IMG/VR virus record: IMGVR_UViG_3300022899_000001
Span: 1 to 64,000 of that record
From: a virus
Lineage: Duplodnaviria > Caudoviricetes
DNA length: 64,000 nucleotides
Direction: 5' to 3' (one strand)
How positions within the stretch are numbered: the first letter of the stretch is position 1; each line of letters begins with the position of its first letter. The notes beneath the pieces were generated by a model. It searched no databases. It was given only the letters and a program-made list of their open reading frames with translations, and was not told the DNA's origin. The translations under genes were made by a program, and so were the position numbers. Below, in pieces: positions 44,373-45,373 of this stretch.

Positions 44373-44912
44373 TCAGCCATCTAGCGGGCTTTTGATGCGC
44401 CGCTCGACCGGAGCGGCGACATGAATGTGCTTTGCATGTCCCGGAAGTGACCCGAATTCACCATGAAGAAGGCGTGATGCGAAAGCATACGCGACGGCAG
44501 CGTCCCTCTCGGTATCGAAATGGCCTATTGGAATCATTTTGTAGTTATACCTAATTCGCGCTCTGAATTTATTCTTGTCCTTTGAGACTCCGCGCACCCC
44601 GTATTTGCCCCATGCCAAGTGAAGATTTCGGCTGTTTTCTCCTTGGGTGCATAGCCTTAAATTCTCCCGGCGATTGTCCAGCCCGTCTCCATTGATGTGG
44701 TCAACTTGCTTGTGTGATGATCCATTTATGCCAAGCATGAATCGGTGCATGGTGACTTCGATCCGCTTTCCGTTTACCGTCGGTCGCCGTGCAGCATAAA
44801 GCAGCTTTCCGCCATGACATTGTTTCAAACTCCATTTGAACTTTGACAACTTATCGAAGTCCGAATCATCAACGATGGCGTGTTTTCCAGCACTAAGAGG
44901 GATTGTTTTCAT
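44373..44912 (-). CDS. HNH-AP2 homing endonuclease fused to an IntI-like C-terminal tail
   Basis: MHRF...VDHINGDGLDNRRENLR (HNH), GVRGVS...FRARI...IGHF....AA.AY...HGEF (AP2), then GHAKHIHVAAPVERRIKSPLDG resembling the IntI end GH...YTHV...VRSPLD. Confidence 0.88.
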   Translation of the reverse strand: MKTIPLSAGKHAIVDDSDFDKLSKFKWSLKQCHGGKLLYAARRPTVNGKRIEVTMHRFMLGINGSSHKQVDHINGDGLDNRRENLRLCTQGENSRNLHLAWGKYGVRGVSKDKNKFRARIRYNYKMIPIGHFDTERDAAVAYAFASRLLHGEFGSLPGHAKHIHVAAPVERRIKSPLDG

Positions 44913-45083
44913 TTAGTTGCTAGTGTGCCGCAGCGTGTGACATGCTGTCAAACTGTAATCGAGCAAACGCTTGACGTAACAATCCACCGTGCGCGGCGAG
45001 TAATGCTTGGTGACCAGCCAGCGGCGGAACACCTCACGTGGCTTGAGTGAATCAGCTTTACGCGGTTCAATTACGGCTGTCAT
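44913..45083 (-). pseudogene. intI: Integron-integrase (IntI-like) remnant, 56 aa, large in-frame deletion (not in ORF track)
   Basis: MTAVIEPRKADSLKPREVFRRWLVTKHYSPRTVDCYVKRLLDYSLTACHTLRHTSN: HYS.RT...Y N-terminal motif of IntI fused directly to box II CHTLRH. Confidence 0.75.
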
Positions 45084-45373
45084 GGCTTTGAGTCGTTGGA
45101 ATAACTGTTCTGACGCTTGGAATCAGCAGCTTCAATCTCTTTTGAGAAGGCGACCATTGCGTTGACCACCTCAGTCTTGTGGGCAAGTGGCACTTCAGGT
45201 TGGTAGCACAGAAGGTCTGTTATTTCCTTCATCCACGCTTCAAGCCTCTGGACGGCAGGTCGCGTCAGAACCATGCGGTGCAGCGAATGAGCTTCCGCCT
45301 GTTCCGCTTCTCGCAGGCTTCGCTCTGTAGCGCAGTCTAGGCACAGACAATCTTCTTCGTGTTTATCGCTCAT
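45080..45373 (-). CDS. Cassette B1 gene, hypothetical protein
   Basis: Start MSDKH inside the L' box (alternative 45427); AHSLHRMVL from the left arm; stop overlaps the intI ATG. Confidence 0.65.
   Translation of the reverse strand: MSDKHEEDCLCLDCATERSLREAEQAEAHSLHRMVLTRPAVQRLEAWMKEITDLLCYQPEVPLAHKTEVVNAMVAFSKEIEAADSKRQNSYSNDSKP
45092..45113 (+). other. attI-like site B0 (crossover G|TT at 45107), immediately upstream of the intI remnant
   Basis: GTCGTTGGAATAACT-GTTCTGACGC; R' matches R'' of cassette B1 10/10; no hairpin partner; canonical position relative to intI. Confidence 0.65.

Follow-up and report, generated by a model that had tools for sequence, protein, structure and literature searches.

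The locus described here raises the question of what became of the integrase of an integron carried by a soil phage, and how an HNH endonuclease gene came to lie among its remains. We analysed it in a window of 64 kb (the whole stretch of DNA under study), taken from an IMG/VR record that is 77.7 kb long and complete according to CheckV. Sequence comparisons make it likely that this is the integrase end of an integron borne by the phage, and that its intI, now a pseudogene, houses a free-standing gene for an HNH/AP2-like homing endonuclease. The endonuclease is probably specific for intI.

Two reading frames on the minus strand make up the core of the locus: ORF56 (56 codons, 45083-44913) and the HNH gene (179 codons, 44912-44373), whose protein ends in ...SLPGHAKHIHVAAPVERRIKSPLDG. 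The TAA codon of ORF56 (44915-44913) abuts the ATG of the HNH gene (44912-44910) with zero gap, and the ATG of ORF56 overlaps the stop codon of the upstream cassette gene (ATGA). A single reading frame runs through ORF56, the HNH body and its tail, interrupted only by this TAA of ORF56. The layout and the sequence ends are as an earlier note on this DNA had described them. A blastn comparison of positions 43900-45500 with GenBank phages gave no matches.

An integron integrase pseudogene

Three collinear pieces at the locus match IntI and nothing else, in agreement with the decayed integrase that the earlier note had claimed. The first is the N-terminal fragment, ORF56 codons 1-43 (44955-45083, minus strand, reading to ...RLLDY), which is assigned by identity to IntI and by HMM. 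A word-based search of ORF56 against longer proteins returned two matches, P0164 of contig L035 and P0165 of contig L036, with 37/43 and 39/43 identical residues, respectively; at the DNA level the identity is 82% (L035) and 86% (L036) over 153-157 nt. P0164 is a protein of 328 aa with the JGI name 'integron integrase', and it scores 330 bits with TIGR02249 (cut-off 265) against 131-137 bits with XerC/D. P0165 has 210 aa. The same preference for IntI over XerC/D is seen throughout the intact relatives, whose TIGR02249 scores of 322-330 bits are well over their own XerC/D scores. For ORF56 itself, TIGR02249 was the sole match in the NCBIfam search (E 0.15), no match was found in Pfam, and none to PDB sequences at E<=10. 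We also built an IntI HMM from 43 intact relatives and scanned the window in six frames. This HMM matches exactly two places, one at model positions 20-57 (the N-terminal fragment, 22.6 bits) and one at positions 318-334 (full E 2e-11). Residues 27-54 of ORF56 can also be aligned to IntI residues 257-288 (E 0.061); this alternative was dropped, given the N-terminal identity of 86-91% to P0164 and P0165.

The second piece lies in the deletion junction, or left arm (44913-44954, minus strand), recognized by a DNA match to box II of L036. Past ...RLLDY, ORF56 skips ~225 integrase codons and continues with a box II remnant, TCACACGCTGCGGCACA (CAC ACG CTG CGG CAC, reading HTLRH), which shares 15/17 bases with box II of L036 and occupies the collinear position. 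The left arm consists of TTGACA (44951-44946), the HTLRH codons (44939-44925), degenerate SFATH codons and the TAA.

The third piece is the tail (44373-44429, minus strand), which forms the end of the HNH protein. The last 17 codons of that protein are an integrase C-terminus, IHVAAPVERRIKSPLD, with a core of 15/15 identical residues: HVAAPVERRIKSPLD is the same in the intact IntI proteins P0121 and P0135 (...TTMVYNHVAAPVERRIKSPLD), and P0164 ends in ...IYIHVAAPLERRIKSPLD for comparison. The tail DNA is 83-87% identical to the intI 3' ends of L005, L007, L035 and L036. It begins with CAC (His, 44429-44427) in place of the catalytic Tyr codon, followed by IHVAAPVERRIKSPLDG and TGA. Because intact IntI tails align here, HIHV in the window corresponds to a YIHV motif in which the codon of the catalytic Tyr now specifies His. 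Between box II and this codon, the endonuclease takes the place of ~30 integrase codons.

Box I, the IntI-specific domain and the catalytic Tyr are thus absent, and box II is a 15-nt remnant. The earlier note had listed the box I Arg, the IntI-specific insertion and the Tyr as missing, and both the HMM scan and the CAC codon bear this out. Across all six frames of the 77.7-kb record, there is no match to Phage_integrase or TIGR02249, and no other tyrosine recombinase. As judged from its sequence, the locus is a true intI pseudogene, derived from IntI and not from another tyrosine recombinase, and no integrase product is possible from it.

A natural internal deletion is also seen in L036, where the gene at 318-950 (P0165) joins LDF to ...ERHVLMVRGG. 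The P0165 junction falls at a short DF(A/D/E)RH repeat, in the same place as the end of the N-terminal fragment in the window (LDY), and this position may be a deletion hot spot.

In a survey of one genome per bacterial species, IntI proteins reach at most ~51% identity to P0164, and the P0164-type clade is so far known from phage-like contigs, as far as the sequences searched tell. At least 25 viral contigs in IMG/VR (L010-L034) also encode members of the IntI family, with 27-73% identity to P0121. Virus-classified contigs may carry integron integrases more often than published work suggests.

The attI-like site and the cassette arrays

Next to the start of ORF56 lies an attI-like site (45084-45113, plus strand), with a block ...GAGTCGTTGGAATAACTG|TT that is common to L035 and L036. 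In a three-way alignment, the window, L035 and L036 are conserved from inside intI through ...GAGTCGTTGGAATAACTGTT, ending at GTT (45107-45109), and directly after GTT they diverge into CTGA, CTGC and ACCA, respectively. The crossover is placed, by this loss of homology, between G45107 and T45108. CTGA (45110-45113) is part of the first cassette, and GTTCTGA (45107-45113) is the reverse complement of TCAGAAC, the R'' of site B1 (45265-45271). The attI-like GTT site of the earlier note is confirmed in both respects. When the attI-intI start pattern was searched for, the L035 contig was the only match.

The cassettes of array B (45108-46349, plus strand) are delimited by four attC-like sites, at 45265-45394, 45560-45690, 45934-46046 and 46242-46349, which were identified by pairing and by the R'/R'' rule. 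The genes of array B are on the minus strand and read towards the integrase remnant. Counting array A (below) as well, ten attC-like sites form predicted imperfect hairpins, with 18 pairs, 83.5% of cells paired as compared with 28-38% in slid controls, and compensatory change in ten pairs. At 8/9 junctions of both arrays, R' is the complement of the R'' of the next site. With an attI beside the intI start and a predicted attC array, the locus is an integron platform in its sequence features. Other contigs were scanned for attC arms with arm-profile HMMs, and L035, L005, L010 and L011 have matches upstream of intact intI on the opposite strand, which is the geometry of array B.

Several side observations concern the arrays. 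Array A (40694-43703) lies behind the 3' end of the remnant and contains six attC-like sites and methyltransferase cassettes. Its left end has nothing but a short GCTAAC-N15-TGTTAGCA site, with a core (AATCACTGTT) similar to that of attI (AATAACTGTT), and neither the HMM nor DNA alignment revealed a second integrase trace near this array or elsewhere in the window. At attI, the first-cassette ORF crosses the crossover and ends with attI-encoded residues, ...NSYSND(S/L)K(P/L)*, in the window (45080-45113), L035 (9975-10003) and L036 (289-320), and in all three its TGA overlaps the intI ATG. The cassette genes therefore aim at intI and are chained to it in translation, whereas the classical layout is divergent.

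A related intact allele and a variant at attI

The earlier note had suggested a search of related phages for an intact integrase at this locus, and L035 (IMGVR_UViG_3300036851_000474) provides one: its intact intI has the same start region and the same 26 nt upstream. L035 is listed in IMG/VR and is a phage contig with genes for GpA terminase, portal and capsid. It shares cassettes and sites with the window: the C5 methyltransferase gene at window 41851-42615 matches L035 5710-6351, the window gene 46001-46309 matches L035 6348-6644, and site B3 matches L035 4517-4623 with 81% identity. Since its backbone is otherwise unrelated, L035 is an instance of the same integron platform, with an intact intI, in a different phage. 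With the structural gene 47101-48450 as the query, no relatives of the window's backbone were found in IMG/VR, and L001 shares with the window just one piece of a cassette gene.

Several soil metagenome runs contain the locus, and the contigs of runs X5-X8 cover 43600-45700 only in parts. A 762-nt contig of run X5 matches positions 44406-45109 (HNH gene, ORF56 and attI) with one difference, and continues beyond 45109 with 58 nt unlike the window, the break falling exactly after GTT. The window's own continuation also occurs in run X5, and 30 of the variant bases were absent from the phage record, the fetched loci and IMG/VR. The variant is a single short contig with a depth of ~5; if real, it has a different first cassette at attI on the same dead allele. 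The earlier note had proposed that shuffling either needs IntI in trans or has stopped. Because the X5 contig differs right after GTT, the former is favoured and the latter is less likely.

The endonuclease gene

The body of the endonuclease (44430-44912, minus strand, M1...SLPGHAK) is HNH_3/AP2-like and apparently intact. It matches Pfam HNH_3 (PF13392; E 1.7e-8, 34.4 bits, cut-off 24.8) and phrog_99 'HNH endonuclease' (E 5.7e-32), and all of the family-invariant residues, D71, H72, N74, N84, N93 and N96, are kept. The AP2 domain (PF00847) is present in close homologues; the window protein has no Pfam AP2 match and a weak match to AtERF1 (E 0.85) at residues 107-152. Some 30 HNH homologues without an integrase tail conserve SLPGH/PGH and end in ...PGHEKF.... 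The 'GH' of PGHAK is the endonuclease's own, because PGH is kept in these integrase-free homologues, and the earlier note's reading of it as an IntI motif is not upheld. The position that the note had given for the endonuclease is right on one side, after box II, but not on the other: instead of ending before GH, the occupied interval runs from box II (with SFATH) to the catalytic Tyr codon.

L003 (864-1217) contains the nearest relative of the window HNH gene, a truncated copy that has lost the N-terminal HNH motif and has the same tail. Its AP2-like part and tail are 91% identical to the window in protein and 81.5% in DNA, which suggests that the truncated protein is still under constraint or that the truncation is very recent.

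The window and L003 share the derived CAC-ATT junction and can be compared over both parts of the protein. In the HNH body, pS is 0.69 and pN is 0.06, and in the tail, where the counts are small, pS is 0.49 and pN is 0.09. In these values the tail behaves much like the body, and it has therefore been under constraint as a piece of the protein. ORF56 codons 1-43 have pN/pS values of 0.08-0.12 relative to intact alleles. These values fit an old mobile unit, consisting of left arm, HNH gene and tail, that would have entered a P0164-type allele fairly recently. The low pN/pS of ORF56 also fits continued constraint, which might arise if ORF56 served as a leader within this series of overlapping genes.

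Recurrence with integrase fragments

Relatives of the window HNH gene are found with integrase fragments in six further contigs (L002, L003, L004, L038, L039 and L040). In L004, the HNH protein is 67% identical to that of the window. To its left is an IntI N-terminal fragment, 90% identical to intact P0121, and HTFRH lies 13 nt before the ATG in a frame other than that of the fragment; the protein ends in ...PGHEK-YNHVAAPVERRIKSPLD, with a YNHV...SPLD tail. L002 (55% identical) is one continuous 366-aa ORF with an IntI N-terminal fragment (NF011946, E 8.8e-11) and the end ...GGHAVRSPLD. In L039, an N-terminal fragment and VHTLRH precede the HNH ATG, and in L038 a decayed IntI C-terminal half (49.5 bits) is followed by HTFGH before the ATG; the tail is absent from both. 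In L040 (400-1058), a box II-like piece lies on the left, and to the right of the HNH stop IntI resumes as LRH..THLLEAGYDIRTVQE. From there the IntI coding sequence runs on to the contig end, the nearest thing we found to an allele that retains the 3' part of intI.

On the left, the arrangement is constant in the window, L004, L038 and L039, with a box II remnant 10-13 nt before the HNH ATG. Slightly further upstream, 4-6 nt from the remnant, all four loci have a TTGACA/TTGATT hexamer (window 44946-44951, L004 ~207-212, L038 ~237-242, L039 ~966-971), and in L039 ATAATA follows 17 nt downstream of it. The hexamer may be a -35 element that travels with the endonuclease gene, or a relic of integrase codons. 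On the right, the junctions vary by locus, with a fused tail, no tail or a resumed box II, and box II is duplicated in L040 and L038. A single simple homing model does not account for these differing right-hand junctions. We found no allele in which the HNH gene sits cleanly within an otherwise complete intI, and for this reason we infer the insertion site from the junctions.

The interrupted alleles are 84-91% identical to uninterrupted alleles of their own subclades, while P0164 and P0121 are 53% identical to each other. This own-subclade affinity indicates at least two independent entries of the HNH gene. On a comparative basis, the gene appears to be mobile, with a left junction common to the window, L004, L038 and L039, and with intact counterparts in P0164 and P0121. 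Two entries, a constant left junction and a position in the most conserved segment of intI are as expected of a homing endonuclease.

In a maximum-likelihood tree of HNH proteins, the five full-length ones whose integrase context is known, those of the window, L004, L038, L039 and L002, fall outside a clade with 99/98 support that holds the integrase-free HNHs. The context test compared five integrase-associated rows with two free rows, and 80/500 label shuffles gave a value as low, so that the separation of integrase-associated HNHs in the tree is only suggestive. L008 and L009, members of the sister clade, are free-standing in phage contigs. None of 139 further HNH representatives has an integrase piece, and the junction pattern PGH(A/E)K(H/Y)(I/N)HVAAP had no match in metagenome or viral contigs.

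Origin of the occupied allele

We propose that the endonuclease would cut an uninterrupted intI within the conserved coding segment from box II to the Tyr codon, and that the HNH gene with short flanks would be copied into intI by break repair during co-infection. The occupied allele would be immune because the segment from box II to Tyr is missing, and cassette exchange at attI would now rely on IntI supplied in trans, from the host or from another phage.

The C-terminal segment of tyrosine recombinases packs on a neighbouring protomer. A more far-reaching and improbable version of this proposal is that the HNH/AP2-like lineage is dedicated to integron integrase genes and has exapted the IntI tail for docking on the IntI-DNA complexes of rival phages or hosts, either for targeting or for dominant-negative inhibition of cassette recombination.

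The pieces could instead have been brought together without any site-specific homing, if the HNH gene lay beside intI, ordinary deletions or illegitimate recombination fused the two, and the other loci are descendants of this event. The variable right-hand junctions agree with such a history, as do the similar left arm in all loci (including TTGAYW), which would be expected under common descent, and the HNH gene of L038, which sits past a complete though decayed intI 3' end. Deletion alone, however, cannot yield an HNH gene between collinear intI pieces. The N-terminal fragments also belong to separate IntI subclades and share 84-91% identity with the uninterrupted alleles of these, and the type of box II remnant (HTLRH or HTFRH) tracks the resident subclade in the window and L004. 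We consider accidental fusion unlikely.

Another explanation would give the fused protein a function, with the IntI tail, perhaps together with ORF56 by read-through of the TAA, docking the nuclease on IntI protomers or on attI/attC, or with ORF56 as a leader ORF. The common frame of ORF56, the HNH gene and the tail, the continuous 366-aa ORF of L002, the body-like evolution of the tail between the window and L003, the pN/pS of ORF56 codons 1-43 and the chaining of the ORFs by ATGA and TAAATG overlaps all speak for it. These codon counts are tiny, however, and a recent origin from functional genes can explain the constraint. The N-terminal fragment of L004 is in a different frame, L039 and L038 are without the tail, and 43 residues of a domain of ~100 residues are unlikely to fold. 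A functional chimera thus seems very unlikely.

Introns and inteins typically insert beside active-site codons, as the HNH gene does here, but a self-splicing intron or intein whose removal restores a working integrase is effectively refuted, since no Rfam family matches 40000-47200 at E<=1, the predicted RNA folding energy of 44300-45150 is unremarkable (z = 0.36; the intron-like structure that the earlier note had considered is not found), the abutting ORFs leave no non-coding room, the DNA lacks ~225 integrase codons, box I and the IntI-specific domain among them, and the Tyr codon is His.

Comparison with known systems

The preferred reading, an intI pseudogene occupied by a homing endonuclease gene, can be compared with several known systems. 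Like IntI1 and VchIntIA (TIGR02249), the remnant has an HYSxRT..Y region, a box II HTLRH and an HV..SPLD tail, and as in these systems it lies beside an attI, where the crossover is G|TT, and near arrays of the attC type; the intact alleles P0164 and P0121 both exceed the TIGR02249 cut-off. Unlike them, the gene in the window is dead, its closest alleles are on phage-like contigs, and the cassette genes face intI, to which they are chained in translation. Bona fide IntI, the same attI and arrays with shared cassettes on other phage contigs supply the missing link for the neighbouring attC-type arrays.

The phage-integron setting itself is already known, because integrons and attC clusters (CALINs), often without an integrase and with DNA methyltransferase cassettes, have been described in phage genomes (Qi et al. 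2023, PMC9892861). The window shares the methyltransferase cassettes with these elements and differs from them in that the reason for the missing integrase can be seen and intact sister alleles are known from other phage contigs; no endonuclease-occupied integrase remnant is reported in that study (Qi et al. 2023, PMC9892861). Our literature searches found no paper that connects a homing endonuclease with intI. What is new here is an intI pseudogene killed by an apparently intI-specific HNH element. The locus shows a route by which a phage-borne integron may lose its integrase, through a selfish endonuclease in the active-site-coding part of intI, and relatives of this endonuclease occur with integrase fragments in several contigs that are unrelated. 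It is also a natural test case, as the attI junction appears variable in the population despite the dead resident integrase, and both the supply of IntI in trans and the role of phages as cassette carriers become directly testable at this locus.

Free-standing HNH homing endonucleases are found within phage genes or split them, as mobE does in nrdA of Aeromonas phage Aeh1. As in mobE/nrdA, the window has a small HNH gene with its own start, located in an active-site-coding part and without an intron or intein. To our knowledge, both halves of the split gene stay functional in cases of the mobE type, whereas the occupied gene in the window has been wrecked, with its last 17 codons now part of the nuclease gene.

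Other parasites of integrons are the attC-targeting group IIC introns and the IS1111-attC elements. Like them, the HNH element would be a selfish element specialised on a conserved integron component. Those elements target attC by reverse splicing or transposition, whereas the window HNH gene sits in the integrase gene and presumably uses break repair. An endonuclease specialised on intI would be a previously undescribed class of integron parasite.
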